Shown one piece after another: positions 14,181-62,435 of a stretch of 64,000 bases of DNA (positions are counted from its first letter, which is position 1; each line of letters opens with the position of its first letter). The notes beneath the pieces are model-generated. The model worked only from the letters and a program-made list of their open reading frames with translations. It did no database searches and had not been told where the DNA came from. The stretch covers positions 4,997-68,996 of the forward strand of contig LFCQ01000002.1 in the NCBI GenBank assembly GCA_001189195.1. Direction: 5' to 3'. Origin of the DNA: Parcubacteria bacterium C7867-007. Its GTDB lineage: Bacteria > Patescibacteriota > Minisyncoccia > Phycocordibacterales > Phycocordibacteraceae. The position numbers were made by a program, and so were the translations under genes.

Positions 14181-14210
14181 TGGCAGTCTGGGACGATGTT
14201 TGAACCTTTA
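14181..14210 (+). repeat. tRNA-3'-end-like direct repeat, type A (TGGCAGTCTGGGACGATGTTTGAACCTTTAT)
   Basis: Member of the 11-copy, same-orientation family; 36 bp upstream of the start of the 13066..14145 gene. Confidence 0.8.
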
Positions 14211-14216
14211 TATTAG

Positions 14217-14513
14217 TTACAACACAAAGAATGCTCCCAGAATTCCTAGAATGAGTGCCGTCAGGGAAATTAGATTTTGTCCTACTTTGCTCTTTACCAA
14301 AACCACGTCACCATTCTTAGATTTCATAGTCAGGCGCGGATTCATCGCTACAGATCCTAAGAAAACAAAGTACAGCACGTAACCAAACAAGAAGGGAAGT
14401 AACAGTCCAGAAGTCACGCTGTGCTTAATAAGAAAATAATACGGAAGTAATCCAACCCCAAAAATGATAAGTACCCAGCCTGCAATTTTATTCCACGAAT
14501 AGTTCGAATTCAT
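14217..14513 (-). CDS. small three-TM membrane protein (cassette gene)
   Basis: 98 aa with three hydrophobic helices; bracketed by repeats at 14181 and 14573. Confidence 0.45.
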   Translation of the reverse strand: MNSNYSWNKIAGWVLIIFGVGLLPYYFLIKHSVTSGLLLPFLFGYVLYFVFLGSVAMNPRLTMKSKNGDVVLVKSKVGQNLISLTALILGILGAFFVL

Positions 14514-14572
14514 ACCTGAAGTTAAGCACGTTCACTGGTCTTCAAAATTTAGAGGGTGGATAAATGAGTGCT

Positions 14573-14599
14573 GGCAGACTAGGGATCGAACCTAAATCT
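14573..14599 (+). repeat. tRNA-3'-end-like direct repeat, type B (TGGCAGACTAGGGATCGAACCTAAATCT)
   Basis: Minus-strand sense AGATTTAGGTTCGATCCCTAGTCTGCCA reads as T-stem, TTCGATC T-loop and acceptor 3' strand; overlaps the pilC stop codon; no matching 5' half anywhere, so it is a tRNA fragment. Confidence 0.8.
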
Positions 14600-15806
14600 C
14601 ACTCGAGAGCGAGTAGATTGGTGCGATCATGGCAAGTGCAAACACACCCACGAATGCACCAATGAAGAGCATGAGAATCGGTTCAATAATAGTAGAGAGG
14701 TCTTTGGTACGATCCTCAACGTCTACTTCATAGTACTCAGCAACCTGGCCGAGCATGTCTGACACCTTTCCAGTCTCCTCTCCCACTGCAATCATGTCGG
14801 TGAAAAGAATCGGGTAGAGCTTTGGGTATGAAAGGAATGTTGCAGAAAGAGGTTCACCTTTTTTAACACGATCAGATGCTTCTACGAGCACTCGACCAAA
14901 GATGTTATCACCCACCACCTCTGACGTGATTTGAATTGCAGAGAGCATTTCAACACCTGAGGAAAGTAGAGATGAAAGAGTACGTGCTGCACGTGCTGCC
15001 ATCGTCTCACGAGTGAGTTCACCAATCACTGGAATACGTAGTGCAATTGCGAGCAATAGAGCGCTTCCCACCTTGGTGCGTATGAATGACATAAAGCCAC
15101 CAATAACCACAATGAATCCAACAACCACAAGAATCACGTTGTTAACCACAAAATCAGACATATCAATGATGACTCGGGTTGCTAGGGGTAGCTCGCTGCC
15201 AAATGATTCGAAGGTACTGGCAAGGGTTGGCACCACAAACATGAGCATGAGTACACCAATAATAGCGATTGCAACAAGAATGATGGAGGGATAGATCATC
15301 GCTCCCTTAACTTTCTTGGTGAGTTGCTCGGAACGATCCATCTGACGTGCAACCACTTTCAACGAATCAGCCAACTTTCCAGACTCTTCACCTGCCTTGG
15401 TCATCGCAATGAACAGTGGAGAGAATACCTTAGGGAACTGCGCAAGACCTTCATGGAAGGAGAGCCCAGATTTCACTGATGTTTCAAGTGCTGTGGTGAC
15501 TTTCTGAAGATACTTGTTGTTTGATTGACGTTCAATAACAGAGAGTGCACGTGAAAGGGTGAGGCCTGCTGAAAGCATTGCTGAGAGATTCTTGGTGAAT
15601 GTAATGCGCTGTTCATTCTTGATGTGACCACCACCAAATTGAATATTTCCTAGTGAGGAGAGACCTCCTCCCTTTGCTTCTTCAACGGTAATAACACTCT
15701 CCCCTGCTTTCTCAATTTCCTCGTATACGGCAAATCGTGTCTGCGCTTCAATGATGCGCTTTGATTGCATCCCATCAGCCTGCTTAACAAGGACCTGAAA
15801 TTTCAT
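14592..15806 (-). CDS. pilC: type IV pilus assembly platform protein PilC (GspF family)
   Basis: Two GspF-type repeats, three TM segments, 404 aa, directly downstream of pilB. Confidence 0.85.
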   Translation of the reverse strand: MKFQVLVKQADGMQSKRIIEAQTRFAVYEEIEKAGESVITVEEAKGGGLSSLGNIQFGGGHIKNEQRITFTKNLSAMLSAGLTLSRALSVIERQSNNKYLQKVTTALETSVKSGLSFHEGLAQFPKVFSPLFIAMTKAGEESGKLADSLKVVARQMDRSEQLTKKVKGAMIYPSIILVAIAIIGVLMLMFVVPTLASTFESFGSELPLATRVIIDMSDFVVNNVILVVVGFIVVIGGFMSFIRTKVGSALLLAIALRIPVIGELTRETMAARAARTLSSLLSSGVEMLSAIQITSEVVGDNIFGRVLVEASDRVKKGEPLSATFLSYPKLYPILFTDMIAVGEETGKVSDMLGQVAEYYEVDVEDRTKDLSTIIEPILMLFIGAFVGVFALAMIAPIYSLSSEI

Positions 15807-15833
15807 ACCGCTATCGTAGCACGCAGGTGCACG

Positions 15834-17585
15834 CTATTCAGAAATAACACGTAGAACTTCTTCCAAAGAAGTGACACCTCGTGCTGCTTTATACAAACCA
15901 TCTTCAAGCATGTTGAGCATTCCTTCCTTGCGTGCCTGTTCTTCAATAGCATCAGGTGCTGCATTGTGAATAATGAGATCGCGAATAGCAGAAGACACGG
16001 TGAGTACCTCATGGATACCGATACGACTCTTGTATCCATCCTCACATTCTGCCGATGCTTTGGGATGGAAGAATGGAATCTGATCAATACCCGTTCCCTT
16101 TGGCACTAGTTTCTCTTCAATAAGTGCGCTGAGTGCTGATTCAAACTTATCCTTAGGAGCAATCTTTGCACGTGCTGCAGCGTCAGGAGTATAGGCTTCC
16201 TTGTCATCACAAAGGCGGCGTACGAGGCGCTGTCCCACCACAAGGCGTAGGGTGGAAACAAGGAGGAAGGGCTCAACACCCATATCCATAAGGCGAGGAA
16301 TGGCACCTGCTGCTGAGTTAGTGTGGATGGTTGAAAGCACCACGTGTCCGGTGAGTGCTGCGTTAATCGCAAGCGACGCTGTTTCTTTGTCGCGGATCTC
16401 TCCCACCATGATGATGTTCGGGTCCTGACGAAGAAGTGCACGGAGCCCGTCAGCGAAACTGAAACCAATTGCAGGGTTCACCTGTGTTTGATTAACACGC
16501 TTCATCTGATACTCGATTGGATCTTCAATCGTGGAGATGTTTACATCTGGTTGGTTAAGAATATCCAGGATCGTATACAACGTTGTTGTCTTTCCAGAAC
16601 CGGTTGGACCAGATACGAGAATGATTCCTGTTGTCGTCTTCATCGCTCCATGAATACGCTCGAGTGTTTCACCATGGAAACCAAGTGACTCAAGACTAAA
16701 ACCTTCTCCTGTTTCGCGAAGCAAACGCATAACGATCTTTTCACCGTAGTACGTAGGGAGCAGTGACACACGGAACGATACTTTATCGGCATCTGTTTCC
16801 ATTTTGAAACGTCCATCTTGTGGAAGGCGCTTTTCATCAAGCTTAAGGTTTGCAAGCACCTTGATACGCGCAGTGATACCGGATGTTGCTTGCTTTGGCA
16901 GTGTCATCGCGTCATGAAGTGTTCCATCGATGCGATAGCGTACCAACACTTCCATCTCCATCGGTTCAATGTGGATATCTGATGCACCTTGAATGATTGC
17001 GTGACGAAGCAGCGTATCCACAATACGTACGATAGGCAAATCTTCTGCCATCTTCTTGAGTTCGTCACCAGACTTCTCTTCACCATCTGCTTCTCGCACC
17101 AGCGTTAGCTTTCCTGCTTCAGTGGTTATGAGATCCCCAAACTCTTCCTTAAGAGACTTCTGATACTGCATCAAGGAGTGCTTGATGGAATCATCATCGG
17201 TGAGGCGGGGGAGAATCTTCAGGCCTGTCTTCTTTCGTACCGAGTCGATTGCAACAAGGTCTTCAGTATCAAGCATCGCCACCTCCAAATCCTGCAGATT
17301 CCTTCGGAACGCAATGATGTTGTGGGTGCGTGCAATGGGTTCAGGAATGAGCGTAAGTATTTCAAGTGGAATCTTAAGCTCTTTAAGATTCACGAAAGGA
17401 ATACCCAGCACGTATGCTTTGATACGCCGAAGTGCATCACTAGTGAGTGCACCTTGTGATACGAGAATGTCCCCAAGCGACTGCTTTCGCTCCTTTCCTT
17501 CTGCTTCTGCAGCTTCAACTTCCTTCCGTGCAACAAGACCGGAATCAAGAATAAATGCTTTCAATTCGCTTTCAGCAACTTGCAT
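15834..17585 (-). CDS. pilB: type IV pilus assembly ATPase PilB (GspE family)
   Basis: N-terminal GSPII_E_N domain; Walker A GPTGSGKTTTLY; Asp and His boxes; probable start MQVAESE. Confidence 0.85.
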   Translation of the reverse strand: MQVAESELKAFILDSGLVARKEVEAAEAEGKERKQSLGDILVSQGALTSDALRRIKAYVLGIPFVNLKELKIPLEILTLIPEPIARTHNIIAFRRNLQDLEVAMLDTEDLVAIDSVRKKTGLKILPRLTDDDSIKHSLMQYQKSLKEEFGDLITTEAGKLTLVREADGEEKSGDELKKMAEDLPIVRIVDTLLRHAIIQGASDIHIEPMEMEVLVRYRIDGTLHDAMTLPKQATSGITARIKVLANLKLDEKRLPQDGRFKMETDADKVSFRVSLLPTYYGEKIVMRLLRETGEGFSLESLGFHGETLERIHGAMKTTTGIILVSGPTGSGKTTTLYTILDILNQPDVNISTIEDPIEYQMKRVNQTQVNPAIGFSFADGLRALLRQDPNIIMVGEIRDKETASLAINAALTGHVVLSTIHTNSAAGAIPRLMDMGVEPFLLVSTLRLVVGQRLVRRLCDDKEAYTPDAAARAKIAPKDKFESALSALIEEKLVPKGTGIDQIPFFHPKASAECEDGYKSRIGIHEVLTVSSAIRDLIIHNAAPDAIEEQARKEGMLNMLEDGLYKAARGVTSLEEVLRVISE

Positions 17586-17619
17586 AGAGAGTACGTATGT
17601 AAAAGTATAGCGCGCCGCG

Positions 17620-17648
17620 ATGAAATTCGCGGCGCGCATAGTGATGAA
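17620..17648 (-). terminator. GC hairpin between the tetR-like gene and pilB
   Basis: gcgcgccgcg-atgaaatt-cgcggcgcgc perfect 10-bp stem; the trailing U-run on the minus strand is weak. Confidence 0.35.
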
Positions 17649-23859: not shown

Positions 23860-24236
23860 CGCTTTGATTTAATAGCTTTCTGAAGGGTGACATCGAGGGT
23901 GAGGAGTGTATATTCTTCGGCATGGGCAAGCAAAGCAAGATCAACAAATGAAAGCTTGCTTTTTTGTCCAAGAAATTCTTCTATAGTCCTAAGAAATGAT
24001 TCTTCTTTGCTGTGGAGTATCGTAAATGCTGCATTCCCAAGCATTATGCGCAAAAAAGAATCAGCATTCGCTTTCCCAGAGCGCATCATAAGTACCGTTG
24101 CAGTCTCTAGAACGACATACTCATGCACTACTAGCTGCTGTGTTTGCTTGAAGAGAAGCTCTTTGGCCTCTGTATGAAAGTGATCTGCTTCGTTAAAGAA
24201 AGCGATCAGTACACTCGAATCAACGAGTATTCCCAT
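23856..24236 (-). CDS. vapC: PIN-domain toxin (VapC-like)
   Basis: N-terminal DSSVLIA motif and acidic residues positioned as in the PIN fold; overlaps the upstream antitoxin gene by 17 bp. Confidence 0.75.
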   Translation of the reverse strand: MGILVDSSVLIAFFNEADHFHTEAKELLFKQTQQLVVHEYVVLETATVLMMRSGKANADSFLRIMLGNAAFTILHSKEESFLRTIEEFLGQKSKLSFVDLALLAHAEEYTLLTLDVTLQKAIKSKR

Positions 24237-27967: not shown

Positions 27968-27998
27968 TGCAAGTCTGGGACGATGTTGGGGCCTTTCT
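27968..27998 (+). repeat. tRNA-3'-end-like repeat, type A variant (TGCAAGTCTGGGACGATGTTGGGGCCTTTCT)
   Basis: 28/31 identical to the consensus; first boundary of the tRNA-Pro-proximal array. Confidence 0.75.
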
Positions 27999-28068: not shown

Positions 28069-28557
28069 ATGTTTAAAAAGCTTGGGGTCGACATTGGTGG
28101 GGTTATCATCGCTGAGATCAAAGCTGAAGGCGGCCTTGCTCACATCGATGAAGATCATCTCAATGTACTGCCAGTACAGAGTGTGCTTGAGGCTCTCGCT
28201 CAACTCGAACACACATTTAAAGATCAGCGTTTTTTGATCTCAAAGGCACGGGAAGAAGTTGAGGGTAGCTGCCGGTCTTGGCTGCAGCACTACAAGTTCT
28301 TCGAGACGACAGGTATACCTGAAGCTCACCTGCACTTCTGCAGGGAGCGTTCGGGGAAGAAGGCCATCTGCAGAGAGTTGGGTATCACCCATTTCGTGGA
28401 TGATAAGCTCGAGGTACTCAGTCACCTTGTAGGCCTGGTTCCGAACCTTTTTCTCTTCAACCCTGACGAGAACGAGACACGGCCCTATGCTGAGTATCTT
28501 CCTTCCGTAACCGTTGTTCCTGATTGGCGTTCACTGACACAGCTCCTTCAAGAGTAG
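28069..28557 (+). CDS. hypothetical protein, HAD/5'(3')-deoxyribonucleotidase-like with a degenerate motif I (cassette gene)
   Basis: LGVDIGGVI where DxDGV is expected; C-terminal GITHFVDDKLEVL...LFLFNPDEN resembles NT5C-type HAD phosphatases. Confidence 0.4.
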   Translation: MFKKLGVDIGGVIIAEIKAEGGLAHIDEDHLNVLPVQSVLEALAQLEHTFKDQRFLISKAREEVEGSCRSWLQHYKFFETTGIPEAHLHFCRERSGKKAICRELGITHFVDDKLEVLSHLVGLVPNLFLFNPDENETRPYAEYLPSVTVVPDWRSLTQLLQE

Positions 28558-28560
28558 TAT

Positions 28561-28627: not shown

Positions 28628-28660
28628 GCTGGCAGTCTGGGACGATGTTGGAACCTTTCT
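28628..28660 (+). repeat. tRNA-3'-end-like repeat, type A consensus (GCTGGCAGTCTGGGACGATGTTGGAACCTTTCT)
   Basis: Perfect consensus copy, directly between a terminator and a promoter. Confidence 0.8.
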
Positions 28661-28666: not shown

Positions 28667-28694
28667 TTGACAATGGTATTTATTTACGTATAAT
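28667..28694 (+). promoter_or_regulatory. sigma70-like promoter (TTGACA, 16 bp spacer, TATAAT)
   Basis: Exact consensus hexamers 7 bp downstream of the repeat; RBS AGGAGG follows. Confidence 0.5.
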
Positions 28695-28737
28695 AGTAAA
28701 TGGGTACTTTTGCCCCTTCATATTAGGAGGTCCTCCA

Positions 28738-29133
28738 GTGGAGACCGCAATCAATTGGAACCAAATGCCGTTCAGGGTTCAGGCTGAAATTAACATCGGC
28801 CTGTACAGCGTGGAGAACACGCAACCCTATTTCGCACGATTGACTGAGCGCCTACAGGCGATCATCGATTCGAGCGAACAGTGGCGTGATTCTGCCGAAA
28901 ACGGAAACGACTGGCACGTTTGCCGGCCCGAGGTGAGAGGGTTCGGCGCGCACTTTAAACTGCTTGTGCCCTTCTCCGAAATCAAGCCGAGCCAACTTCG
29001 AGCTTTGTGCTCGTACGTCAACAGACTCGCTGAACGACTGGCTGAAGAAAACGATCCGAACATTGATACGGTCTACGCTGAAGTCGCCTTCAGACCCTGC
29101 AGCACAATCTTTACTAGCGGAAGTAGCTTGTAG
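28738..29133 (+). CDS. hypothetical protein (cassette gene); GTG start preferred over the longer ATG ORF that begins at 28645
   Basis: AGGAGG lies 8 nt upstream of the GTG at 28738, whereas the ATG at 28645 falls inside the repeat; no family match. Confidence 0.4.
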   Translation: METAINWNQMPFRVQAEINIGLYSVENTQPYFARLTERLQAIIDSSEQWRDSAENGNDWHVCRPEVRGFGAHFKLLVPFSEIKPSQLRALCSYVNRLAERLAEENDPNIDTVYAEVAFRPCSTIFTSGSSL

Positions 29134-29191: not shown

Positions 29192-29224
29192 GCTGGCAGT
29201 CTGGGACGATGTTGGAACTTTTCT
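29192..29224 (+). repeat. tRNA-3'-end-like repeat, type A (GCTGGCAGTCTGGGACGATGTTGGAACTTTTCT)
   Basis: Near-perfect consensus copy. Confidence 0.8.
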
Positions 29225-29239: not shown

Positions 29240-29268
29240 TTGACTTTTATATATATTAATAGTATGGT
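29240..29268 (+). promoter_or_regulatory. sigma70-like promoter (TTGACT, 17 bp spacer, TATGGT)
   Basis: Hexamers with an AT-rich spacer downstream of the repeat and upstream of the 29301 ORF. Confidence 0.4.
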
Positions 29269-29300
29269 AGTTTCAGGTATTGAAACGTATGGGGTAAGAA

Positions 29301-29636
29301 ATGGATTTTGCGATTTTGGACGCCCTCGATGCTCTGAAGGAGCAGGAGAAAGCACGACTACGAGAAGAGCTGCCCAAAAGGCTGGCACACTCTCACTTCG
29401 TCTGGTGGCGCCGGATGCTTCATCTGGCCACCTTCTTCAATCACGACCGCATCGACTGCCGCATCCCACTTTGGGTCCGGCTAGTGCTTGGAAACGAAGA
29501 TGCGTTTCAAGCATACACTGATGCGCTTCAAGAAAGATTCGGCTCATCGTTTCAGGTCTATCTGGGACGTCCAATTGGATACCCCGAGGCCCGATACGAT
29601 CGCGTGTGTATCGAGTTTCAAGCCGCAGCCGCCTGA
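29301..29636 (+). CDS. hypothetical protein (cassette gene)
   Basis: 111-aa ORF with its own promoter-like element and a strong terminator. Confidence 0.45.
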   Translation: MDFAILDALDALKEQEKARLREELPKRLAHSHFVWWRRMLHLATFFNHDRIDCRIPLWVRLVLGNEDAFQAYTDALQERFGSSFQVYLGRPIGYPEARYDRVCIEFQAAAA

Positions 29637-29640
29637 AGAA

Positions 29641-29686
29641 GCCCGGAGGATAATTCCCCGCTGCTCCTCCGGGCGGCTTCTTTTTA
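29641..29686 (+). terminator. Rho-independent terminator
   Basis: gcccggagga...tcctccgggc 10-bp stem followed by ttcttttt. Confidence 0.6.
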
Positions 29687-29713: not shown

Positions 29714-29742
29714 TGGCAGACTAGGGATCGAACCTCAAATCT
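29714..29742 (+). repeat. tRNA-3'-end-like repeat, type B (TGGCAGACTAGGGATCGAACCTCAAATCT) fused 3 bp after the tRNA-Pro 3' end
   Basis: Identical to the 14573 copy except for one inserted C; minus-strand sense is a T-arm plus acceptor fragment of a tRNA different from tRNA-Pro. Confidence 0.8.
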
Positions 29743-36487: not shown

Positions 36488-37411
36488 TTAGTTTTGGCGA
36501 CGAGAATGAAACTTCTTGTGGACCTCACGTAAGTGCGCATCAGTAACGTGAGTGTAGATCTGAGTTGTGGTGATGGATGCATGACCAAGCATCTGCTGTA
36601 CAGAGCGAATATCAGCACCATTGTTCAGAAGATCCGTAGCGAATGAGTGACGCATCACGTGAGGCGTCACTTTCTTTGTAATGCCGGCTTTAGCGGCATA
36701 GATTTTAATCATGCGCTCAACCGATCGGGGGGTGAGACGTGTGGGCACACGTTTAGACGTCTTCTCAGGATCCTTGCTTGGCATGGGCGGAATATTCACA
36801 AAAAGTGCCTCATCCATGTCTTTTCGTGCTTTAAGATACGCTCGAACGGCTGTTTTTGCTTCATCAGAAAGGAATACCACACGAACTTTTTCTCCTTTAC
36901 CTCTAATAGGGAAGTCATCTCTACTTAGATCGAGATCAGTATTGAGGGAACAAAGCTCTGAAACACGAAGTCCTGTTGAGAAGAGAAGTTCGAGTATGGC
37001 CTTGTCTCTGAGGGACTTCTCATCGGTTCCGACTGCTGAAGCAAGTAAACGATTGAGTTCGGTCGGGGAAATAAGGTCCAAGTGGCGTTCTGGTACCTTT
37101 GCAAGCTCAATTCGCTCAGGAGAAAGGCCATCCATACCTCGTTTTCGAAGGAATTTAAGGAATGCTCGTAGAGCAATGAGGTAATAATTCTGGGTACGGC
37201 GCTTCATGGTGCCAGAAACACCCTGTTGGCGGTTTAGCCAGAGCCGAAATTCACGTACCTTTTCCTCCGTTATGTCAGAAACCTCTTTAATAGCCATTTG
37301 ATCAAAGAAACGGCTTAGGTAGTGGTCGTAGTTCTCAATAGTCTTCACTGCACGACCACGCTCAATCTCAGTGTGCTCTAAAAACTGCCGTTTCCAGTCC
37401 TCAATATTCAT
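36488..37411 (-). CDS. tyrosine site-specific recombinase, XerC/XerD family
   Basis: SAM-like N-domain; catalytic R..HxxR..Y context (HVMRHSFAT, LGHASITTTQIYTHV). Confidence 0.85.
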   Translation of the reverse strand: MNIEDWKRQFLEHTEIERGRAVKTIENYDHYLSRFFDQMAIKEVSDITEEKVREFRLWLNRQQGVSGTMKRRTQNYYLIALRAFLKFLRKRGMDGLSPERIELAKVPERHLDLISPTELNRLLASAVGTDEKSLRDKAILELLFSTGLRVSELCSLNTDLDLSRDDFPIRGKGEKVRVVFLSDEAKTAVRAYLKARKDMDEALFVNIPPMPSKDPEKTSKRVPTRLTPRSVERMIKIYAAKAGITKKVTPHVMRHSFATDLLNNGADIRSVQQMLGHASITTTQIYTHVTDAHLREVHKKFHSRRQN

Positions 37412-51443: not shown

Positions 51444-51448
51444 ACCGT

Positions 51449-53263: not shown

Positions 53264-53269
53264 CTAAAT

Positions 53270-53641
53270 ATGGCAGCAAAGCCCATTAACGTTGTTGAGC
53301 AGGGGCTAGTGATTGGAGGCGCAGCACTTGCAGATACCATAGGACTCATTCCTGTTGTAGGAAATATCGTTTGGTTTATAGCCTTTTTGTCTTTAAATAT
53401 CTACTTCCTCATTAAACTAGGACCATCGTATCTGGGTGGAAAACGCACCTCCACGAAGATGATCCGCACGATTATAAGCGGTATTATTGGTGCAATTCCT
53501 GTTGTGGGTAACATAGCTCCTGAACTATTAATCCTCACCCTTAGTACTTTTTGGATGAATAACAAAGAGGTTATGGAGGAAGAGGCTGCGAGGCAGGCAG
53601 CAAACGACAACACTCCTTCTAAAATATCCCGTGCTGCGTAA
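53270..53641 (+). CDS. small two-TM membrane protein with internal GxIPVVGNI repeats
   Basis: 123 aa; IGLIPVVGNIVW and IGAIPVVGNIAP repeats. Confidence 0.4.
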   Translation: MAAKPINVVEQGLVIGGAALADTIGLIPVVGNIVWFIAFLSLNIYFLIKLGPSYLGGKRTSTKMIRTIISGIIGAIPVVGNIAPELLILTLSTFWMNNKEVMEEEAARQAANDNTPSKISRAA

Positions 53642-53678
53642 CAGGGTACGCGCACAGACGCGGTATACTGTACGTACT

Positions 53679-54665
53679 ATGAAAGCTGGTTTTGGAGTAC
53701 TGGTGACGCTTCTTATCCTCTCTGTTGGTGTACCCGCACATGCGCAAACACTGTCTCTTGATCAAGACCCACTAACGGTACAGATTAGTCCAAACTTCCC
53801 ACGACCCTTTGAGGCGGTGACGGTTGTGCCGGGTAGTACTATAATCGACCTTTCTGCGAGTACCGTTACCGTATCGGTAAACGGTGTGGTGGTAGAGAAG
53901 GGAAGCGGTAGCGCTCCGGTTCAGATACAGGCAGGTGGGGCAGGTGCACGCACAGTTGTTAAGGTAACCGCAGTACATAACGGTCAAACCTTCACTAAGG
54001 AAATCACCATCCGTCCTGCAGATGTCGCACTGGTTGTTGAACCTTCTTCCGTTTCACATCCCTTCTACAAAGGAGCATCGCTTGTTTCCTCTGAAGGACT
54101 CCTTCGCTTGGTGGCACTTCCAGACCTACGTACTGCTGCTGGTGCACCTATCCCTTCGTCAAACCTTGTATTCACCTGGCGAAACGGGAGCCAGATCCTC
54201 CAAGACTCTTCTGGTATTGGGAAGTCTGTGCTAACCGCAACCGCTCCTGTTCGATACCGCGATACCACCATCCGCGTTACTGTTTCAACACAAGACAATA
54301 GTGTTGTTGCAGAAGCAACCGCATTCATTTCTCCAACCGTTCCTGTTATTCGCATATATCAAAACGATCCATTGCTTGGTCCACTCTTTAATTACGCACT
54401 CCCAAAGAAGATTTCCATGACTGACGAGGAGCAGACCTATCGTGCCGTTCCTTATTATTTCTCAGGTACACCGATTATGAATTGGACCGTGAACGGCAAC
54501 CAAAGCCAGTCTGGGAAAGATATAACCGTTCGTTCAACGGGGGCAGGTAGCGGTACTGCGTTGGTAGGGTTCAACGCCAAACAACCTTCAGCAGGTGTGG
54601 TGGCGGACACCTCTATGAGTGTTTCCTTTGGTGGCGCTAAGCCTCTTGGTATATTTGGTCTATAA
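53679..54665 (+). CDS. secreted hypothetical protein
   Basis: Signal peptide ending AHAQT; Thr/Val-rich beta-type composition. Confidence 0.4.
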   Translation: MKAGFGVLVTLLILSVGVPAHAQTLSLDQDPLTVQISPNFPRPFEAVTVVPGSTIIDLSASTVTVSVNGVVVEKGSGSAPVQIQAGGAGARTVVKVTAVHNGQTFTKEITIRPADVALVVEPSSVSHPFYKGASLVSSEGLLRLVALPDLRTAAGAPIPSSNLVFTWRNGSQILQDSSGIGKSVLTATAPVRYRDTTIRVTVSTQDNSVVAEATAFISPTVPVIRIYQNDPLLGPLFNYALPKKISMTDEEQTYRAVPYYFSGTPIMNWTVNGNQSQSGKDITVRSTGAGSGTALVGFNAKQPSAGVVADTSMSVSFGGAKPLGIFGL

Positions 54666-54667
54666 AT

Positions 54668-55435
54668 ATGAACCGACCCACCCTTACAACCACCTCCACC
54701 TTCTTGCTAAGCACTGTATTGCTTTCAATACCGTTTCTTGTGTTTGCAGACGATAGCTTTGTTCCACTCACCAGCCTTCCTGGTCTAGATAATGTTATTG
54801 GAGAAAGCACGTTGCCTGGATTTATAAACAATCTCTATCGTCTTCTCATTGGTGCTGCGGCTATCGTAGCTGTTGTAGAGATTATTTGGGCAGGCTTCCT
54901 GTTCATGAACAGCAATGACAGTATCTCTGCTAACAAAAAAGCGAAGCAAAAGATTACTAATGCGATCATAGGTCTGGTTCTGGTGCTTTCCCCATACGTC
55001 GTATTTAGTGTGATCAACCCGAAGATCCTTGATGTGAATCTAGACTTTGGACAATTAAAGGGTGGTGACAGTACCGGCGGCGCAGGCAGTACTGAAGATG
55101 TAAATGTTATTTCTATCGATTCAAAGTCGAGCAAAGAAGATGCAGGGGCAGTTTGTAGTAAGGAGGGAGGAAATCCAATATTCAGCTGTAAGCCAGAAAA
55201 AGGAGATGCGTATGTGGTGACCAAAGACCAAGCATGTAAGACAGGTGAAACTACCGTTACAACCTGCACAAAACCTAAGAACACTGATCCAAATGCTTGT
55301 GTAGATACTGGCGCCGCAACCGTCATCGCCCCTAAAGGTGACTCTTCATACTCACGAGACGGGTATATTCAAGTGAAGGATTCGTGCTGCAAAGGCATGA
55401 CTGCAGGAAATGTCTGTTGGCAAAAACCTAAATAA
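54668..55435 (+). CDS. VirB2/TrbC-like pilin candidate with Cys-rich C-terminal extension
   Basis: Signal peptide plus two hydrophobic helices separated by a short basic loop, then a Cys-containing tail. Confidence 0.3.
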   Translation: MNRPTLTTTSTFLLSTVLLSIPFLVFADDSFVPLTSLPGLDNVIGESTLPGFINNLYRLLIGAAAIVAVVEIIWAGFLFMNSNDSISANKKAKQKITNAIIGLVLVLSPYVVFSVINPKILDVNLDFGQLKGGDSTGGAGSTEDVNVISIDSKSSKEDAGAVCSKEGGNPIFSCKPEKGDAYVVTKDQACKTGETTVTTCTKPKNTDPNACVDTGAATVIAPKGDSSYSRDGYIQVKDSCCKGMTAGNVCWQKPK

Positions 55436-55436
55436 C

Positions 55437-56651
55437 ATGACCAGACGCATACTCATCATTGCCGCAGCTATCGTAGTAATCGTGGGTATTGCCCTTGCGG
55501 TGTATTTCTTCTTTTTTGCTCCTAAGTCTGGTGAATTAATTATTGGCGATCCATTTGGTGATACTGGTAGTGGCACCGTAGAGCCTGGATCACTGATAGA
55601 AGGGCAGGGGGCAGGAACCGTCGTTGGTCCTAACTTTGTCCGTATCACAGAAGGTCCTGTATCTGAAGGAGTGGTGGCATTTGGGATAATGATTCCATCT
55701 GAAGCAGGCACGGTAAGCACCACAAGCAGTAGTACTCCTCTCGTGCCTGATGTTGCGGTACGGTTTATAGATCGCGCCAGTGGGAACATATACAGCTATG
55801 TAGCGCATGCACGCACCCTTACACGTATTTCAAATAAAACACTTCCAGGTATCCAGGAAGCATCATGGGTACCAAACGGAACATTAGCGTATGTACGATT
55901 CATCACGAGTGACTCAGCTTCTGGTGAGCACGTGGCAACATACGCGCTTCCAGAGAATGGGGAAGGGGGGTACTTCATTGAACAGGACCTTTCCGAAGCA
56001 CGGGTGGTGGGTTCAACCGGCCTCTTCACCATGATTTCTAACACAGGGGGAAGTGTGGGAACTATCGCAAAGGTAGACGGTACCGGTGCACGCACCCTCT
56101 TCACCTCACTTATCTCTTCTCTAATTGTTCACCCTGCAGGAAACACATACTTCGCACACACCAAAGCTTCAAGTCAGACGGAAGGGTATGGCTTCCAAAT
56201 AATAAATGGCTCGTTTAATCGTATTCTTGGCCCACTTAACGGCCTCTCGCTTCTCCCAAGCCCTTCAGGAAAATCACTTCTCTATAACTATGTAAGTGGT
56301 GGAGTAACACGTCTTGCGGTTATTGATCTTGCAAACCGAAACGCAACAGCACTTCCTTTAAGCACCCTGAGTGAGAAGTGTGTGTGGGCAAGTGAGCTCA
56401 CCGTGTACTGTGGAGTTCCAACAACCCTAAGTGGGTACAAGCTTCCTGAGGACTGGTACCAGGGTGCTGCACCGTTCTCTGACCGTATCTGGCGTATTGA
56501 TATGACCGCACGTGTCGCAACACTTGTGGTGGACCCTACACAGGTCGCAAAGACCTCTATCGATGCCATTGCACTCACCACGGACCCCAAAGAAGACGTT
56601 CTCATCTTCACTGATAAGAAAACTGGTTCGCTCTGGTTATACAATCTATAG
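55437..56651 (+). CDS. TM-anchored hypothetical protein (last gene of the T4SS-like cluster)
   Basis: N-terminal TM helix; Gly/Thr/Ser-rich beta-type ectodomain. Confidence 0.4.
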   Translation: MTRRILIIAAAIVVIVGIALAVYFFFFAPKSGELIIGDPFGDTGSGTVEPGSLIEGQGAGTVVGPNFVRITEGPVSEGVVAFGIMIPSEAGTVSTTSSSTPLVPDVAVRFIDRASGNIYSYVAHARTLTRISNKTLPGIQEASWVPNGTLAYVRFITSDSASGEHVATYALPENGEGGYFIEQDLSEARVVGSTGLFTMISNTGGSVGTIAKVDGTGARTLFTSLISSLIVHPAGNTYFAHTKASSQTEGYGFQIINGSFNRILGPLNGLSLLPSPSGKSLLYNYVSGGVTRLAVIDLANRNATALPLSTLSEKCVWASELTVYCGVPTTLSGYKLPEDWYQGAAPFSDRIWRIDMTARVATLVVDPTQVAKTSIDAIALTTDPKEDVLIFTDKKTGSLWLYNL

Positions 56652-56654: not shown

Positions 56655-56685
56655 AAAGAAGAAAACCGCCTTAGGCGGTTTTCTC
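56655..56685. terminator. bidirectional hairpin aaaaccgcc-tta-ggcggtttt
   Basis: 9-bp stem with flanking A and T runs between convergent genes; overlaps the yidC stop. Confidence 0.5.
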
Positions 56686-57408
56686 TTCTTCTAGCGTTAT
56701 TTGTGGAAGTTTTCGTATCAACAGCTCCTGAGCAAGAGTGAACAAGCTTGTTGTTATGAAGTACAACGCAATTGCTCCTGAAGAGATATAGGCGACACCA
56801 CCAATCAGAATAGGGAGCATGTAGCGCATCTGGATGGCCATGGAGTGGTTAAACCGCTCTGATGTGGTTGGTTCTGTACTAAGCTTGGGAATCGGCATTG
56901 CATACTTTGCCTGAAGAAACTGCGTCACTGCAGCCACAATAGCGAGAATTACGTTGTGACTTGTAAGAGTGAAGAACCCAAGGAACAGGAAGGACACCGT
57001 CTCTGGAACCGGTACAAATGAATACAAGATACTAGTATCAACACCATTGAGTTCACGTACGAATACGAGATACAGCGCGATAACCACAGGAAGCTGAATG
57101 AGAATCGCAAGAATGCTTGAGAACGGGTTGATCTTGTACTTCTTGTAGAGTGCAAACACTTCTTTTGCCTGCGTTTCCTTATCATCCTTATATTTCTCCT
57201 GAAGTGCCTTGAATTTAGGCTGTATCACCTGCATGGCACGAGAGGTGCGCAGCGCAGAGACGGTAAGGGGAAGGATAATAAGCTTCACAATGATCGTTAC
57301 GATGATCACCGCGAGACCAATATCACCCCCGGGAAGCACATCTACCAGTGCGATAAGAAGGTTATATATAGGAACAAACAAGAACGTATTAAATAGGTCG
57401 CCGATCAT
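56671..57408 (-). CDS. yidC: membrane protein insertase YidC (short Gram-positive type)
   Basis: Five TM helices; conserved PLTVSALRTSRAMQVIQPK... Confidence 0.85.
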   Translation of the reverse strand: MIGDLFNTFLFVPIYNLLIALVDVLPGGDIGLAVIIVTIIVKLIILPLTVSALRTSRAMQVIQPKFKALQEKYKDDKETQAKEVFALYKKYKINPFSSILAILIQLPVVIALYLVFVRELNGVDTSILYSFVPVPETVSFLFLGFFTLTSHNVILAIVAAVTQFLQAKYAMPIPKLSTEPTTSERFNHSMAIQMRYMLPILIGGVAYISSGAIALYFITTSLFTLAQELLIRKLPQITLEEEKTA

Positions 57409-57743
57409 ATAGTGTACATAGTACCGGAAGGGAACGATTGCTGTAAGAGTGCAGTAAGTTCGGTCTCCATTTCAGTGAAGGGAAGTTCAGCAGCTCCAGG
57501 GCGGGCGTGGATGATAATCACCCGACCAGAAACACACCACGGCTTCAAAATGGCTTTGATGCGGCGTTTAAGGAGGTGCCGATCTACTGCTTTCTTCGCT
57601 ATTTTCTTTGAAACAACCACCGCACCCCCTGAAATAGGGGCTTTGAGTATATAGGCCATAGAAAAATACCGGCTTGCGGTTCTTCGCAGGCCGGTATTCT
57701 GCTCAAAACCGGCCCTAGGGAGACGGTTAGCGCGGGAAAGCAT
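57405..57743 (-). CDS. rnpA: ribonuclease P protein component
   Basis: Basic 112-aa protein in the conserved rpmH-rnpA-yidC synteny. Confidence 0.85.
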   Translation of the reverse strand: MLSRANRLPRAGFEQNTGLRRTASRYFSMAYILKAPISGGAVVVSKKIAKKAVDRHLLKRRIKAILKPWCVSGRVIIIHARPGAAELPFTEMETELTALLQQSFPSGTMYTI

Positions 57744-57895
57744 TAGCGTACTTTCTTTGAAACAGTAAGGCTGGCACGGCCCTTACGGCGGCGTGCGAGC
57801 AATACACGGCGACCGGTAGGGGTAGCTGAACGGGCACGGAAACCGTGGGTTCGTGCGCGCTTGCGCTTCTTTGGTTGATAGGTGCGCTTAGGCAT
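57743..57895 (-). CDS. rpmH: 50S ribosomal protein L34
   Basis: Translates as [22 protein letters not shown]...; its stop overlaps the rnpA start (TAATG); not in the supplied ORF table. Confidence 0.85.
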
Positions 57896-57992
57896 AAGAA
57901 GTTATACACAGGATACTAACAGGTTGCGTCCTGGCGTGCAAGAAATTGCCTATCTTTGGAGTTATCCACAGAGGTGTATACAATGAGCTCAC
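57896..57992. promoter_or_regulatory. dnaA upstream region with DnaA boxes (TTATACACA at 57902, TTATCCACA at 57962)
   Basis: Perfect and one-mismatch DnaA boxes 20-90 bp upstream of the dnaA start. Confidence 0.6.
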
Positions 57993-59342
57993 ATGAATCG
58001 TTCTGATCCGCATGAGCTCTGGGAATACATGCTGACGCAGGTCGAACTCTCTATATCTTCAGCCAATTTCAACACTTGGTTCAAGGAAAGCACGATAGTA
58101 AAGATAGAGGACGGTATCGTATACATCGGTGTTCCAAGCCAGTTCTTCCGTGATTGGTATCAAAAGAAGTTCCACACACTTCTTTTGAAGATTGTGCGTG
58201 ATGTTTCGTATGAATTCAGGAATATCGAGTACATGATCGTGAAAGATATTGCTCGCAAACCAAAGGAGCAGCGTACTCGCCGTGAACCAACACCAGAACT
58301 ACCTCTCAATGAGTTCTATATCAATAAAAGCGATAATCTAAACCCTCGTTACACGTTTGATACGTTCGTTGTTGGTTCATTTAATGAGTTGGCTCATACC
58401 GCAGCCATGGCAGCTATTGCGCGCCCAGGTATTACCTACAACCCTCTCTTCATTTATGGCGACACTGGTCGTGGAAAGACACACCTGATTCAGTCCATTG
58501 GTAACCAGTACAAGAAACAGTATCCAAATCGTAAAGTGTTTTATCTCACTTCAGAGAAGTTTGGTACTGATTACACTGACTCACTCCAGCAAGGCACTGC
58601 AAACCGCTTTAAAGAGAAGTATCGTCAGTATGATCTGTTGATTATGGACGACGTACAGTTCCTTTCCCGTAAGGAAAAGATGCAGGAAGAGTTATTCCAC
58701 CTCTTTAATACCCTCTACGACAACAATAAACAGATCGTATTCTCCTCAGATCGTGCCCCTATCGCTATCCCAGACATCGCAGACCGCCTTCGTGGACGCT
58801 TTGTATCCGGTATGACCGTTGATATTGGTGAACCAGACAGTGAATCTCGTATCGCTATTGTGCGAAAGAAGGCAGCAATGAGTGGTATCACCCTTTCTGA
58901 TGAGGTTGCTGAGTATATTGCTACCTCTGTTACCGGTTCAATTAGAGAATTGGAAGGTGTTCTTAACTCAGTAGTGTGCCACACACAGGTAAAAGGAACT
59001 CCTCCAGATATCGCTGAAGTGAGACAATCCCTTCGTTCATTCTCACGCCCTTCAAAAACAGTATCTGTGAAGCATGTGGTGTCTAAAATTGCTGAATTCT
59101 ATGGCATTGAAGAGGAGAGTATCTATGAGAAGACCCGTAGAAGGGAGGTGGTACGCCCACGCCAAGTGATTATGTATATTCTTCGTGAAGATTTCAGTGT
59201 TTCATATCCAACCATAGGTTCTAAACTTGGTGGTCGTGACCACACCACTGTCATTCACTCCTGCGAAAAGGTTAAACGTGAAGTTGCAGAAGATACTGAA
59301 CTCGCAAAAGAGATTCAGGATATTCGTACCTTGTTAGTCTGA
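57993..59342 (+). CDS. dnaA: chromosomal replication initiator DnaA
   Basis: Walker A GDTGRGKTHL, sensor and box VII motifs, C-terminal DNA-binding domain. Confidence 0.95.
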   Translation: MNRSDPHELWEYMLTQVELSISSANFNTWFKESTIVKIEDGIVYIGVPSQFFRDWYQKKFHTLLLKIVRDVSYEFRNIEYMIVKDIARKPKEQRTRREPTPELPLNEFYINKSDNLNPRYTFDTFVVGSFNELAHTAAMAAIARPGITYNPLFIYGDTGRGKTHLIQSIGNQYKKQYPNRKVFYLTSEKFGTDYTDSLQQGTANRFKEKYRQYDLLIMDDVQFLSRKEKMQEELFHLFNTLYDNNKQIVFSSDRAPIAIPDIADRLRGRFVSGMTVDIGEPDSESRIAIVRKKAAMSGITLSDEVAEYIATSVTGSIRELEGVLNSVVCHTQVKGTPPDIAEVRQSLRSFSRPSKTVSVKHVVSKIAEFYGIEEESIYEKTRRREVVRPRQVIMYILREDFSVSYPTIGSKLGGRDHTTVIHSCEKVKREVAEDTELAKEIQDIRTLLV

Positions 59343-59583
59343 TTGTGAAGAAAGTCTGGGGATTCCCTGTGGATAGCCTGGAGATAAATAGAGGAAGAAC
59401 TATGGGGAGAACTATCTAATAGCGGTAGAGTTTTCCCCACTGTTTCAACCGGCCTCCTTCTATCCACAGTCGTTGTACTCCACTTTCACACAGCTTGAGT
59501 GAAACCTGCGTAAGGGTTTCAGAGCGTATATACTAGAGATATCGCTCTTTCCCCAGTATCCACACCCCTAATAATAAAGAATC
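59343..59583. other. candidate oriC: at least three DnaA boxes plus an AT-rich unwinding tract between dnaA and dnaN
   Basis: CTATCCACA (59460), GTATCCACA (59556), reverse TGTGGATAG (59368); AT-rich aataataaagaatcatgattatcaatatag at the dnaN start. Confidence 0.6.
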
Positions 59584-60684
59584 ATGATTATCAATATAGA
59601 AAAAAAGGAGTTCTCGGAAGCAGTCAGTAGAGTGTCTCGATTTGCTGAGAGGAAATCAGCAACACTACCGGTACTCGCAGGTATCGCTATTGTTGCAGGG
59701 GATGATGGAATCAAACTTCGTGCAACAAACCTTGAGACCGGTATTGATTTCAAGATGGGTGGAACTATAGAGCAGCCAGGGGTGGTGGCTCTTCCTGCTA
59801 TTACTCTTCGTGAGATAACGAGCTCATTCTCTGGAACCGGAACTATTAAACTCGAGCATACAGGAGATACGGTCCTTATCTCCTCCTCTGCAGGGCGCAG
59901 TACGCTTAAGACACTGGCATACGAAGATTTCCCCACACTTCCATTCCCTGAAGCTCCTACGGCTAAATTCACGCTTCCAGGAGTATCTATCCGTACACTA
60001 GTACTCACAGTTGCTGGTTGTGCATCACCCTCAACTGTTCGTCCTGAGCTCGCTAGCGTACTCCTTTCTGCAGAAGGCGGCATTGTGAAGGCTGTTGCCA
60101 CAGACTCCTTCCGTCTAGCAGAGAAGAAAATCTCAGTAACAGGCTCTGTGGCACCGTTTTCTATACTTATTCCTGCAAAGAATGCGATCGATATCGTACA
60201 AACACTTCCTGATACCGATGTGGATGTTCTTATTGACGAACACCAGTGTGCATTCTCTTGGCCTGGAGGTATTGTTACAACTCGTCTCGTAACGGTCCCA
60301 TACCCTGACTACACACAGATAATTCCAAAGCAGTTTGTTTCTGAAGCTACTCTTCTCCGAAAGGACTTTGAGGCAGTACTTCGTCGTACGGCAATCTTCT
60401 CAGATTCATTCCAGAAGATTCGTGTTGGATTCTCTACAACAGAGAAAAAGATTGCATTCTCTGCCCGCAACAGTGATGTTGGAGAATCTTCTGAAAATGT
60501 CCCTGCCTCTATTTCTGGTGAAGCAATTGAACTATCGTTTAATCACCGTTATCTAGCTGCACCCCTATCACTTATTAGTTCAGAAAACCTTTCACTTTCA
60601 GCAGCAGGTATTGGACGTCCACTCATTATTAAAGGAATTGGAGATAATACATTCCTGTATCTTGTGATGCCAATGAATCAGTAG
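59584..60684 (+). CDS. dnaN: DNA polymerase III beta sliding clamp
   Basis: 366 aa with three-domain clamp architecture immediately after dnaA. Confidence 0.95.
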   Translation: MIINIEKKEFSEAVSRVSRFAERKSATLPVLAGIAIVAGDDGIKLRATNLETGIDFKMGGTIEQPGVVALPAITLREITSSFSGTGTIKLEHTGDTVLISSSAGRSTLKTLAYEDFPTLPFPEAPTAKFTLPGVSIRTLVLTVAGCASPSTVRPELASVLLSAEGGIVKAVATDSFRLAEKKISVTGSVAPFSILIPAKNAIDIVQTLPDTDVDVLIDEHQCAFSWPGGIVTTRLVTVPYPDYTQIIPKQFVSEATLLRKDFEAVLRRTAIFSDSFQKIRVGFSTTEKKIAFSARNSDVGESSENVPASISGEAIELSFNHRYLAAPLSLISSENLSLSAAGIGRPLIIKGIGDNTFLYLVMPMNQ

Positions 60685-61196: not shown

Positions 61197-61229
61197 ACTG
61201 GCAGACTGAATTGAAGTTGGAACCTTTCT
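61197..61229 (+). repeat. tRNA-3'-end-like repeat, type A variant (CTGGCAGACTGAATTGAAGTTGGAACCTTTCT)
   Basis: Both ends conserved, central part diverged. Confidence 0.7.
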
Positions 61230-61275
61230 GCAACATGTGGTAGTTTTCGTCCAGAATCGGTAATCGGAGGCTATT

Positions 61276-61551
61276 ATGGCACAACGCAAGAAGAAGTTAC
61301 TCGCTGAAAAAGTGGTTCCGGCGTATTCGGCCCAGTTGTACTCTTCGACTGAAGGAAGACAATTCTTCCCTGACATTCTGCAGGATGCTTTCGGCGAGAA
61401 AACCATCACCGGCTTTCATCGCTATGAACGTGTTCTTGGTGCACTCATTCCTATGGAGGCCCTATTAATGCTCGCTGGGTGCGACCAAGAGATTGATGAG
61501 GGTATGAAGCTTCGTATTAAAAACGCAGCTCGAAACCTCCTTTATTCATAG
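61276..61551 (+). CDS. hypothetical protein (cassette gene)
   Basis: 91 aa, preceded by a GGAGG RBS and followed by a terminator. Confidence 0.45.
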   Translation: MAQRKKKLLAEKVVPAYSAQLYSSTEGRQFFPDILQDAFGEKTITGFHRYERVLGALIPMEALLMLAGCDQEIDEGMKLRIKNAARNLLYS

Positions 61552-61574
61552 CCATGTCTCGATCAAGTTTTTTA

Positions 61575-61611
61575 AACCGCCCACTCATCCGAGTGAGCGG
61601 TTTCTTTTTAT
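61575..61611 (+). terminator. Rho-independent terminator
   Basis: ccgcccactc-atcc-gagtgagcgg stem followed by tttcttttta. Confidence 0.55.
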
Positions 61612-61615
61612 TGTT

Positions 61616-61645
61616 AACAGCTTGGGACGATGTTGGAACCGTTAT
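61616..61645 (+). repeat. tRNA-3'-end-like repeat, type A variant (AACAGCTTGGGACGATGTTGGAACCGTTAT)
   Basis: The core GGGACGATGTTGGAACC is perfect. Confidence 0.75.
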
Positions 61646-61647
61646 AT

Positions 61648-61938
61648 TCAACTAAGTACCAAAAGAATCTCACTCACCCCTATGCCGATACAGATAGATC
61701 CCAAACCGATTAATACGTAGGATGAACTTTTAAAGCCTGGAATCAGTACCAGTATCTGACCAAGTTTAAATCGCTCGGACCAGATCTGAGTTAAGCCTAA
61801 AAAGACGGAGAATATACCCAAAACTCCAAATAGTAAGCCACCTTGAACGGATTGTTCATAGGGTCCATATATCGTTGCGGCTACTCCACATAAAAAACAA
61901 AAGGCGGAAACTATTGCAACGATTGTGACGCGGTTCAT
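61648..61938 (-). CDS. three-TM small membrane protein (cassette gene)
   Basis: 96 aa; starts 38 bp from the next repeat. Confidence 0.45.
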   Translation of the reverse strand: MNRVTIVAIVSAFCFLCGVAATIYGPYEQSVQGGLLFGVLGIFSVFLGLTQIWSERFKLGQILVLIPGFKSSSYVLIGLGSICIGIGVSEILLVLS

Positions 61939-61973
61939 CGCTCTACTGTATCAGCAAATCTTAAGATACTTTT

Positions 61974-62002
61974 GCTGGCAGTCTGGGACGATGATGGAAC
62001 CA
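61974..62002 (+). repeat. tRNA-3'-end-like repeat, type A (GCTGGCAGTCTGGGACGATGATGGAACCA)
   Basis: 28/29 identical to the consensus. Confidence 0.8.
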
Positions 62003-62046
62003 AATTAAAATCTTGGGCGACTACGTTTTAGTAGCCGCCCGAGTGA

Positions 62047-62349
62047 TTAGGTTATCGTTGTGGCTCGATTCGCCGCAACAAACTTTAGAAACTTCTTCCT
62101 TCTTGCAGGTGGCACCCCTTTCGGTGTTGCTACGATACAGCCCCACTTTTGGCGACTCAGTACGTGAAAGGGGCGGTATTGAGATTCTGGAAAGGCTTGG
62201 TTGTAGATCTTCCGTAAAACCGAGTCGCTTGGAAGAGTCAGGTTGAAGATGTTGTCTTTACGACGCAAACTCCAGCGGGAAACATTTTTCTTATCTCTGT
62301 CCCAATGCAACCAGCCATATTTCATCTCAAGAATAGGTTCAATAGCCAT
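62047..62349 (-). CDS. hypothetical basic protein (cassette gene); preferred over the antisense ORF 62013..62246
   Basis: 100 aa with a more protein-like composition than the Leu/Ser/Arg-rich overlapping plus-strand ORF. Confidence 0.35.
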   Translation of the reverse strand: MAIEPILEMKYGWLHWDRDKKNVSRWSLRRKDNIFNLTLPSDSVLRKIYNQAFPESQYRPFHVLSRQKWGCIVATPKGVPPARRKKFLKFVAANRATTIT

Positions 62350-62405
62350 GTATGCATCTCCTCTTTCTACAGAAGACTATTATTCATATGTTGAGTTTGT
62401 GCAAG

Positions 62406-62435
62406 CTGAAAGACTAGCGATCGAACTTTTTAATC
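62406..62435 (+). repeat. degenerate tRNA-3'-end-like repeat, type B-like (CTGAAAGACTAGCGATCGAACTTTTTAATC)
   Basis: AGACTAGcGATCGAAC matches the type B core (T-loop GATCGAAC retained); last boundary, 20 bp upstream of the DciA-like gene. Confidence 0.6.

Follow-up and report, generated by a model that had tools for sequence, protein, structure and literature searches.

Repeat arrays in the window

The stretch of DNA analysed here, referred to below as the window, comprises 64,000 nt of contig LFCQ01000002.1 of Parcubacteria bacterium C7867-007, and all coordinates are counted within it. Our analysis concerns two short repeats, type A (TGGCAGTCTGGGACGATGTTGGAACC) and type B (TGGCAGACTAGGGATCGAACCT), which are arranged together with single genes in three arrays (14181-14593, 27968-29735 and 61199-62428) and probably serve as recombination sites of a gene-cassette system anchored on the 3' end of a tRNA-Gln gene. 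The arrays follow the layout A-(gene)-A-(gene)...-B, with a type-B site closing the right end.

Ten copies were counted, seven of type A and three of type B, instead of the 11 given by the original prediction. Every copy lies on the + strand, and profile searches of the - strand of the window returned zero copies. The single orientation described earlier is thus correct for the window; as a genome-wide property it does not hold, orientation being uniform per array, and contig JALHOO010000001.1 has loci that carry arrays on opposite strands. Type-A copies with at most one mismatch start at 14181, 28630, 29194 and 61976 (expectation in shuffled sequence 0), and further degenerate copies at 27968, 61199 and 61615. 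Type B is exact at 14572 and 29714 and is represented by a degenerate copy at 62407-62428. The arrays enclose seven cassette open reading frames (ORFs), four on the + and three on the - strand, none of which matched Pfam. Neither a tRNA or cloverleaf nor an Rfam family was found to overlap any window repeat (ARAGORN, Rfam). The features are as follows:

14181..14206, + strand: type-A site opening the sole cassette of array 1; one mismatch to the A consensus, nhmmer E=2e-9
14217..14513, - strand: cassette ORF, 98 aa, probably a membrane protein; no Pfam match
14572..14593, + strand: type-B site closing array 1, an orphan tRNA-Gln 3' fragment; exact
27968..27993, + strand: degenerate type-A site at the end of array 2 farthest from B; four mismatches
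28069..28557, + strand: cassette ORF, 162 aa; no Pfam match
28630..28655, + strand: type-A site matching the consensus exactly
28667..29133, + strand: cassette with a promoter match and an ORF at 28738-29133 (131 aa, no Pfam match)
29194..29219, + strand: type-A site; one mismatch
29240..29677, + strand: cassette holding a 111-aa ORF without Pfam match (29301-29636), a promoter-like site before it (29240-29268) and a terminator-like hairpin after it (29660-29677)
29714..29735, + strand: type-B site closing array 2, an orphan tRNA-Gln 3' fragment; exact
61199..61224, + strand: degenerate site of A length (TGGCAGACTGAATTGAAGTTGGAACC) at the end of array 3 farthest from B; profile search
61276..61551, + strand: cassette ORF, 91 aa; no Pfam match
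61615..61640, + strand: type-A site with a degenerate 5' part; profile search
61648..61938, - strand: cassette ORF, 96 aa; no Pfam match
61976..62001, + strand: type-A site; one mismatch
62047..62349, - strand: cassette ORF, 100 aa; no Pfam match
62407..62428, + strand: degenerate type-B site (TGAAAGACTAGCGATCGAACTT) closing array 3; nhmmer E=0.065, weak alone and backed by its position at the array end
36488..37411, - strand: Xer-type tyrosine recombinase, the sole recombinase in the window; a trans-acting candidate only

The B site closing array 1 shares its final 2 nt with the stop codon of pilC/T2SSF, a convergent gene (14592-15806), and the B site closing array 2 sits 9 nt past the 3' end of tRNA-Pro(UGG) (29745-29816, - strand). 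Signs of self-expression were detected within the arrays: sigma-70-type promoter matches in two cassettes, one of them 12/12 (28667-28694), and terminator-like hairpins ending two, including a hairpin at 28599-28621 located 3' of the 162-aa cassette ORF. The repeats had been described as possible scars; what they separate are not decayed islands but whole one-gene units, of which at least two carry sigma-70-type promoter matches and terminator-like hairpins.

Distribution of the arrays across Patescibacteria

A genome scan for the A motif, taking one genome per species, yielded 57 loci in metagenome-assembled genomes of Patescibacteria/Parcubacteria/Paceibacterota, and a metagenome scan yielded 85 more, 80 of which were analysed, giving 137 loci in all. 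These loci were ascertained via exact consensus A sites. Successive sites followed each other as AA in 281 cases, AB in 83, BA in 2 and BB in 4, and none of the 137 loci had sites on both strands. Arrays with room on the right mostly end in a B-like site, which is at times degenerate.

The 366 cassettes span 0.2-2 kb with a median of about 516 bp and usually contain one ORF; in the subset of genome loci, the longest cassette ORF runs along the + strand 73 times and along the - strand 93 times. The cargo is extremely diverse, with 391 cassette proteins falling into 350 clusters. NUDIX, HAD and GNAT proteins, methyltransferases, a formyltransferase and a histidine phosphatase are among the recognisable products. 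Neither a recombinase, integrase or transposase nor a phage-gene remnant was found in the 366 units, and enrichment of defence genes was not seen among the cassette cargo. Full-text literature searches, which included the motif itself, returned no description of these arrays; they represent site-specific cassette arrays previously undescribed in the literature searched.

Identity and anatomy of the two sites

Type B corresponds to the 3' end of tRNA-Gln(UUG), namely the last 22 nt of the gene and 5 nt of trailer. An intact tRNA-Gln(UUG) gene with B (TGGGAGACTAGGGATCGAACCT) as its 3' end was identified by ARAGORN at 12 of the 57 related genome loci, and the complete tRNA-Gln(UUG) of relatives matches the window B site at 21 of 22 positions. 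In the remaining arrays, among them all three of the window, B is an orphan, homologous to tRNA-Gln over no more than 22-24 nt, and these 22-24 bp copies sit beside core genes and other tRNA genes. ARAGORN and Rfam found no tRNA-Gln gene in the window, and its B sites lack the complete cloverleaf with anticodon that makes a tRNA gene. The reading of type B as a tRNA 3' fragment is therefore upheld, as its minus strand reads T-stem, T-loop, T-stem and acceptor and the matching gene exists in relatives; the tRNA with a matching 3' end, for which a genome search had been proposed, is tRNA-Gln(UUG). The assignment of the terminal A as discriminator base has to be corrected. The U1-A72 pair is typical of tRNA-Gln, and because tRNA-Gln begins with this pair, TCTGCCA makes up the entire 7-nt acceptor strand, the discriminator is the next base, the G of a conserved GCAAT, and B itself begins with TGG.

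The conserved sites are longer than first described, starting 5 nt upstream with ATTGC, and A extends to about +33. The conserved A site reads ATTGC followed by TGGCAGTCTGGGACGATGTTGGAACCTTTnT, and the conserved B site reads ATTGC followed by TGG(G/C)AGACTAGGGATCGAACCT. Treating A as B with a 6-bp insertion in the T-loop, as originally suggested, is a reasonable alignment: the two types then have 19 left-hand positions in common, after which CGATGT is inserted and one base deleted in A, followed by T(G/C)GAACCT. It is not a unique alignment, since MAFFT favours a gap of 2 nt and leaves the right part diverged. The left 19 positions of A and B are clearly homologous, and correspondence of the right-hand GAACC is plausible. 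Most of the 377 A-site copies differ from the consensus by 0-2 mismatches, the site being near-invariant across species in surroundings of unrelated sequence. Type A is a diverged derivative of the tRNA end that travels with each cassette. No dyad symmetry was found in type A, and the sole dyad in B is the T-stem of the tRNA; the predicted single-strand fold of A (0 to -1.5 kcal/mol) is no better than that of shuffled sequence.

The degenerate site at 61199-61224 is a hybrid, combining a B-type left part (TGGCAGACT) with the length of an A site and a differing middle (GAATTGAAG). No CCA is encoded after the 3' ends of tRNA-Pro in the window and of tRNA-Gln in related loci, and a gene for a CCA-adding enzyme lies alongside (26594-31365, 31431-32894).

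Cassette mobility and the probable position of strand exchange

The window cassette at 14181-14575 is 93% identical to one in the tRNA-Gln array of another species, Parcubacteria C7867-008, where the next site on the right is an A and not the B present in the window, and the housekeeping flanks of C7867-007 and C7867-008 are only 73-80% identical. The array beside tRNA-Pro is syntenic with a C7867-008 locus that has an orthologous B site; the window carries three cassettes there and C7867-008 five, with none in common. In total, ten pairs of homologous cassettes were found in different arrays and with different neighbours. When the ten pairs were pooled, identity jumped from 0.25-0.34 to 0.78-0.93 at the left site, and on the right it stayed at 0.83-0.92 through position +4 of the next site and was random beyond; several pairs have an A as their next site in one genome and a B in the second. 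Homology of a pair begins at the TGG of its own A site and ends with the ...ATTGC before the next site, the boundaries falling within -5..+4 in all ten pairs. Variants of the A body go with the right-hand cassette and variants of ATTGC with the left-hand one. The mobile unit is the A body from TGG, one gene in either orientation, and the sequence up to the ...ATTGC before the next site; because of this left and right identity profile, exchange can be placed within ATTGC/TGG(C/G), the slash marking the unit boundary. That the repeats are recombination sites, as the original prediction held, is supported by the ten moved pairs, by the syntenic locus with different cassettes and by the strict A...A-B polarity, and the elements that they bound are mobile one-gene units.

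The position of exchange can be narrowed further by comparing variants within the sites. All 15 real tRNA-Gln genes have G at position 4, where 74% of the orphan B sites and 84% of the A sites have C; position 5 is T in 19% of A sites and in none of 65 orphan B sites. This suggests that strand exchange covers position 4 and not position 5, and would put the crossover at the outermost 3' bases of the tRNA instead of the T-arm. The dyad-symmetric T-arm had been proposed as the crossover core; A has neither dyad nor fold, and the unit boundaries together with the linkage at positions 4 and 5 point to ATTGC/TGG(C/G) instead.

Several candidate signs of mobility were rejected. Near-identical contig pairs taken as possible strain-level insertion alleles turned out to be distinguished by scaffolding Ns alone. 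Autonomous forms of the element were not recovered: the large cassettes share no recurring protein, and none of the contigs has overlapping ends that would suggest a circle. An assembly break was considered as a sign of variability, and the end of a Joint Genome Institute contig near B proved to be a contig overlap at tRNA-Pro, a second contig of the same sample spanning the array. Look-ups of the window cassette proteins returned only the same sample.

A probable tRNA-anchored cassette system

Our preferred reading, to which we give a probability of roughly two in three, takes the repeats as the sites at which the gene cassettes of an integron-like system recombine. The 3' end of tRNA-Gln would be the anchor of this system, with B in a role like that of attB/attI and A like that of attC. 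A circular cassette with one A site would recombine with a resident site and insert left of the body of that site, which in tRNA terms falls directly after the tRNA 3' end. The tRNA or orphan B would thereby be kept intact, and older cassettes together with their A sites would be pushed away from B. Strand exchange would occur in about GCTGG(C/G), corresponding to tRNA positions 69-73 and one trailer base, and the sites would be recognised as double-stranded sequence, not as hairpins. The recombinase would act in trans, and the conserved single Xer-type tyrosine recombinase is the sole candidate seen.

A sites nearer to B match the consensus better and distal ones are more degenerate, which is consistent with insertion at the B end; the gradient is modest (Spearman 0.29, p=0.001) and comes from loci ascertained through exact consensus A sites, and this caveat is the first of several points that weigh against a cassette system of this kind. 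The inverted-repeat arms usual for the cores of tyrosine recombinases are lacking in A. Profile searches of all ORFs in the 137 loci detected no tyrosine or serine recombinase except an Xer orthologue in three. Neither excised circles nor strain-level presence/absence alleles were observed. Finally, the proposed mechanism does not account for the seeding of orphan B sites, which often sit precisely at core-gene stop codons.

Such stop codons overlap the last 1-3 nt of B at 29 of the 57 orphan B sites that have an ORF on the right, pilC in the window being one case, and the C-TA of the tRNA T-stem doubles as the TAG or TAA stop of the convergent core gene. At locus L047, DnaN ends at the same residue as DnaN of the window, though its stop codon lies inside B (3312-3333). 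Genome streamlining may have removed all spacer bases up to the functional edge of B; alternatively, a second type of event may seed arrays at stop codons. In favour of the cassette reading, the spacer between ruvB and yebC looks like a conserved landing pad: it carries arrays in L031 and L059, and in L043 (about 3205-3230) it holds a degenerate B-like site, TGGCAGCGTCAAAAATCGAATCCC, beside which no A site was called; the latter is a possible empty landing pad.

The candidate recombinase

The Xer gene at 36488..37411 is the only recombinase gene of the window, as the original prediction had stated, and the insertion ends of the window arrays have no adjoining tyrosine recombinase. Its product passes the cutoff of the XerA-type NCBIfam model and scores 137 bits on the integron-integrase model, below the cutoff of 265. 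Within our preferred reading, we consider it possible, although doubtful, that this host enzyme catalyses A x B and A x A exchange in trans, as for the Xer-dependent elements discussed below. Cassettes bring no enzyme themselves, and close homologues of the window Xer abound in Patescibacteria/Paceibacteria, the best 120 database matches (76-91% identity) coming from public assemblies and metagenomes of this group. In L009 and L127 an array begins within about 5-20 nt of the xer stop codon, and in L137 one begins about 0.9 kb downstream of it. Moreover, two of five xer loci sampled regardless of arrays have a B-like site positioned about 35 nt upstream of where xer starts (L186, about 4935-4960, and L187, 4944-4965; xer starts at 5001), where it abuts a conserved motif, CTTCGCACAATA...TATACT, taken as the xer promoter region. 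Against a role of Xer stand the sites themselves, which are not dif-like, show no 11-6-11 arrangement and, in A, have no inverted arms. The rpsO-xer arrangement, kept in four of five sampled relatives, is typical of a housekeeping gene, and many directly repeated sites per chromosome would risk deletion of core genes. Few adjacencies were counted, and some of these are orthologous to one another; sites occupy 2 of 12 flanking spacers, versus about 0.6 expected (rough Poisson p about 0.1). The adjacency of xer and arrays is suggestive and statistically weak, and Xer stays a candidate only.

An 804-aa ORF without a family match (34073-36487) is convergent with xer, and within it a 12-nt tandem repeat (34970-35137) encodes a Pro/Thr-rich stretch. 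At the position matching this ORF, L009 has a cassette array.

Likeness to known systems

Like integrons, these arrays have co-oriented sites between single-gene cassettes with a vast, diverse and mostly orphan pool of cargo, a special terminal site to which younger cassettes apparently adjoin, and the same cassette occurring across arrays and species. Contrary to integrons, including the integrase-less clusters of attC sites lacking integron-integrases (CALIN), their sites are a conserved double-stranded sequence of about 38 bp without the hairpin or the R/L-box symmetry of attC. The arrays also lack an intI gene, their terminal site is the end of a tRNA gene or an orphan copy of it, and several arrays occur in one very small genome. 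Integron cassettes are mostly promoterless, driven by Pc and co-oriented, whereas the genes here point both ways (73 + / 93 -) and promoter-like matches lie inside two window cassettes.

Islands that target tRNA genes offer a second comparison. In the tycheposon islands of Prochlorococcus, tRNA 3' fragments act as direct repeats and newer arrivals displace older elements from the tRNA (bioRxiv 10.1101/2020.12.28.424599). The arrays share with such islands the tRNA 3' part as target, an intact tRNA, partial tRNA copies as direct repeats, and tandem stacking in which older units are pushed from the tRNA. They differ in that the units, of 0.2-2 kb, are free of genes for an integrase, replication or packaging, each element bears a fixed, diverged A in place of an identical copy of the tRNA end, and most landing pads are orphan 22-24 bp fragments away from tRNA-Gln genes. 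In relatives an intact tRNA-Gln closes the array, but the repeats have the diverged A form, and in the window B is an orphan. The arrays are set apart from both integrons and tRNA islands because they have no intI, no attC hairpins, no integrase in the units and a diverged element-borne site.

Integrative mobile elements exploiting Xer (IMEX), such as the CTX and TLC phages and the gonococcal island, and the pdif modules of Acinetobacter plasmids are likewise small and recombinase-free, are bounded by short sites and presumably depend on a host enzyme. Unlike theirs, the A and B sites are not dif-like, having no two inverted arms of about 11 bp around a 6-8 bp spacer, and they form direct repeats, in contrast to the alternately inverted sites of pdif modules.

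Alternative explanations

The cassettes might be exchanged without a dedicated recombinase, much as minimal mobile elements are: DNA would enter by natural transformation, and RecA would recombine it at the conserved 38-bp repeats. This would compete directly with a site-specific cassette system, and we regard it as improbable. The window does encode ComEC, RecJ and the type IV pilus proteins PilB and PilC, no integrase lies near any array, and the length of the repeats would marginally suffice to anchor homologous exchange. However, 26-38 bp of homology is near the lower limit for RecA, and homologous exchange would not be expected to produce a strict A...A-B polarity or a systematic difference between A and B, nor is it easily squared with boundaries confined to -5..+4 in every pair, with A-body variants staying right and ATTGC variants left, and with a near-invariant site amid unrelated surroundings. 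That the repeats are instead operators or promoter elements for accessory genes, bound by a transcription factor or an alternative sigma factor and resembling a tRNA only incidentally, we find scarcely credible. The sites are intergenic, sigma-70-like promoter matches follow just downstream of two A copies, and A ends in GGAAC, which we take to resemble the -35 element of extracytoplasmic function (ECF) sigma factors. Yet the orientation of the sites is fixed while the ORFs point both ways, a conserved -10 partner is missing after the site, homology between cassettes breaks off at the sites, and in relatives B is literally part of a tRNA gene. Readings of the motif as a sigma-54 or ECF promoter or a retroviral primer-binding site were rejected by eye, spacing and partner elements not being conserved.

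It is also very unlikely, in our view, that the arrays are decayed integrase-bearing islands or prophages at tRNA-Gln with the repeats left as inert scars, even though the more degenerate distal sites and the precedent of the Prochlorococcus islands, with their tRNA 3' direct repeats and outward displacement of older elements by newer ones (bioRxiv 10.1101/2020.12.28.424599), would suit it. No integrase or phage remnant occurs in the 366 units, which are uniformly one gene long, with promoter-like matches in the two window units checked; A, in 377 copies, is a distinct and strongly conserved sequence and not a decaying copy of B; and small units recur in other arrays with exact boundaries. A separate candidate, an origin of A as a phage attP, was dismissed. 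A 20-mer of A matches 33 IMG/VR contigs, all inside one homologous ORF (...VWDDVGTFDGRPW...) of a high-GC phage family, which amounts to a single chance event; the identity in these loci (L062-L094) covers 22 nt within the conserved phage ORF, which by eye we take to be C5-methyltransferase-like. Type B as a phage att site was likewise discarded, the one viral contig matched carrying an ordinary tRNA-Gln gene, and annotated phage and plasmid collections gave no match to the sites.

Neighbouring genes

Competence and type IV pilus genes relevant to the entry of cassette DNA are located at 2023-5816 and 14592-17639 (ComEC, RecJ, PilC/T2SSF, PilB/T2SSE). A type IV secretion-like cluster at 49296-56651 encodes PrgI, a TraC-like protein, a VirB4/TraG P-loop ATPase, a type IV secretion system pilin and several large proteins without a family match. 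It adjoins the replication-origin genes (yidC-rnpA-rpmH, then dnaA-dnaN, 56671-60684), and array 3 lies just beyond dnaN. A PIN-domain protein and its small upstream partner, probably a toxin-antitoxin pair, are encoded next to the RNase Y gene (23856-24462). Further tRNA genes of the window are Gly-UCC, Gly-GCC and Arg-UCG.

Significance

Patescibacteria have tiny, streamlined genomes, and the acquisition and turnover of their accessory genes are poorly understood. To our knowledge, integrons are so far the only well-established platform for the capture of single genes. The cassette system described here occupies about 5% of the window and recurs in dozens of species. We see an even chance that Paceibacteria own a lineage-wide gene-capture platform of their own, analogous to integrons and mechanistically distinct from them, with double-stranded sites derived from tRNA-Gln, many landing pads per genome of about 0.6-1 Mb that are frequently fused precisely to core-gene stop codons, self-expressed cassettes pointing either way and a host enzyme, possibly Xer, acting in trans. 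The site is short, defined by sequence and extremely conserved, and the predicted crossover is narrowed to a few bases, about GCTGG(C/G), which makes the hypothesis directly testable. If true, the system would rank among the main channels of gene flux for a large section of the bacterial tree and might provide a tool for site-specific integration in genetically intractable organisms.

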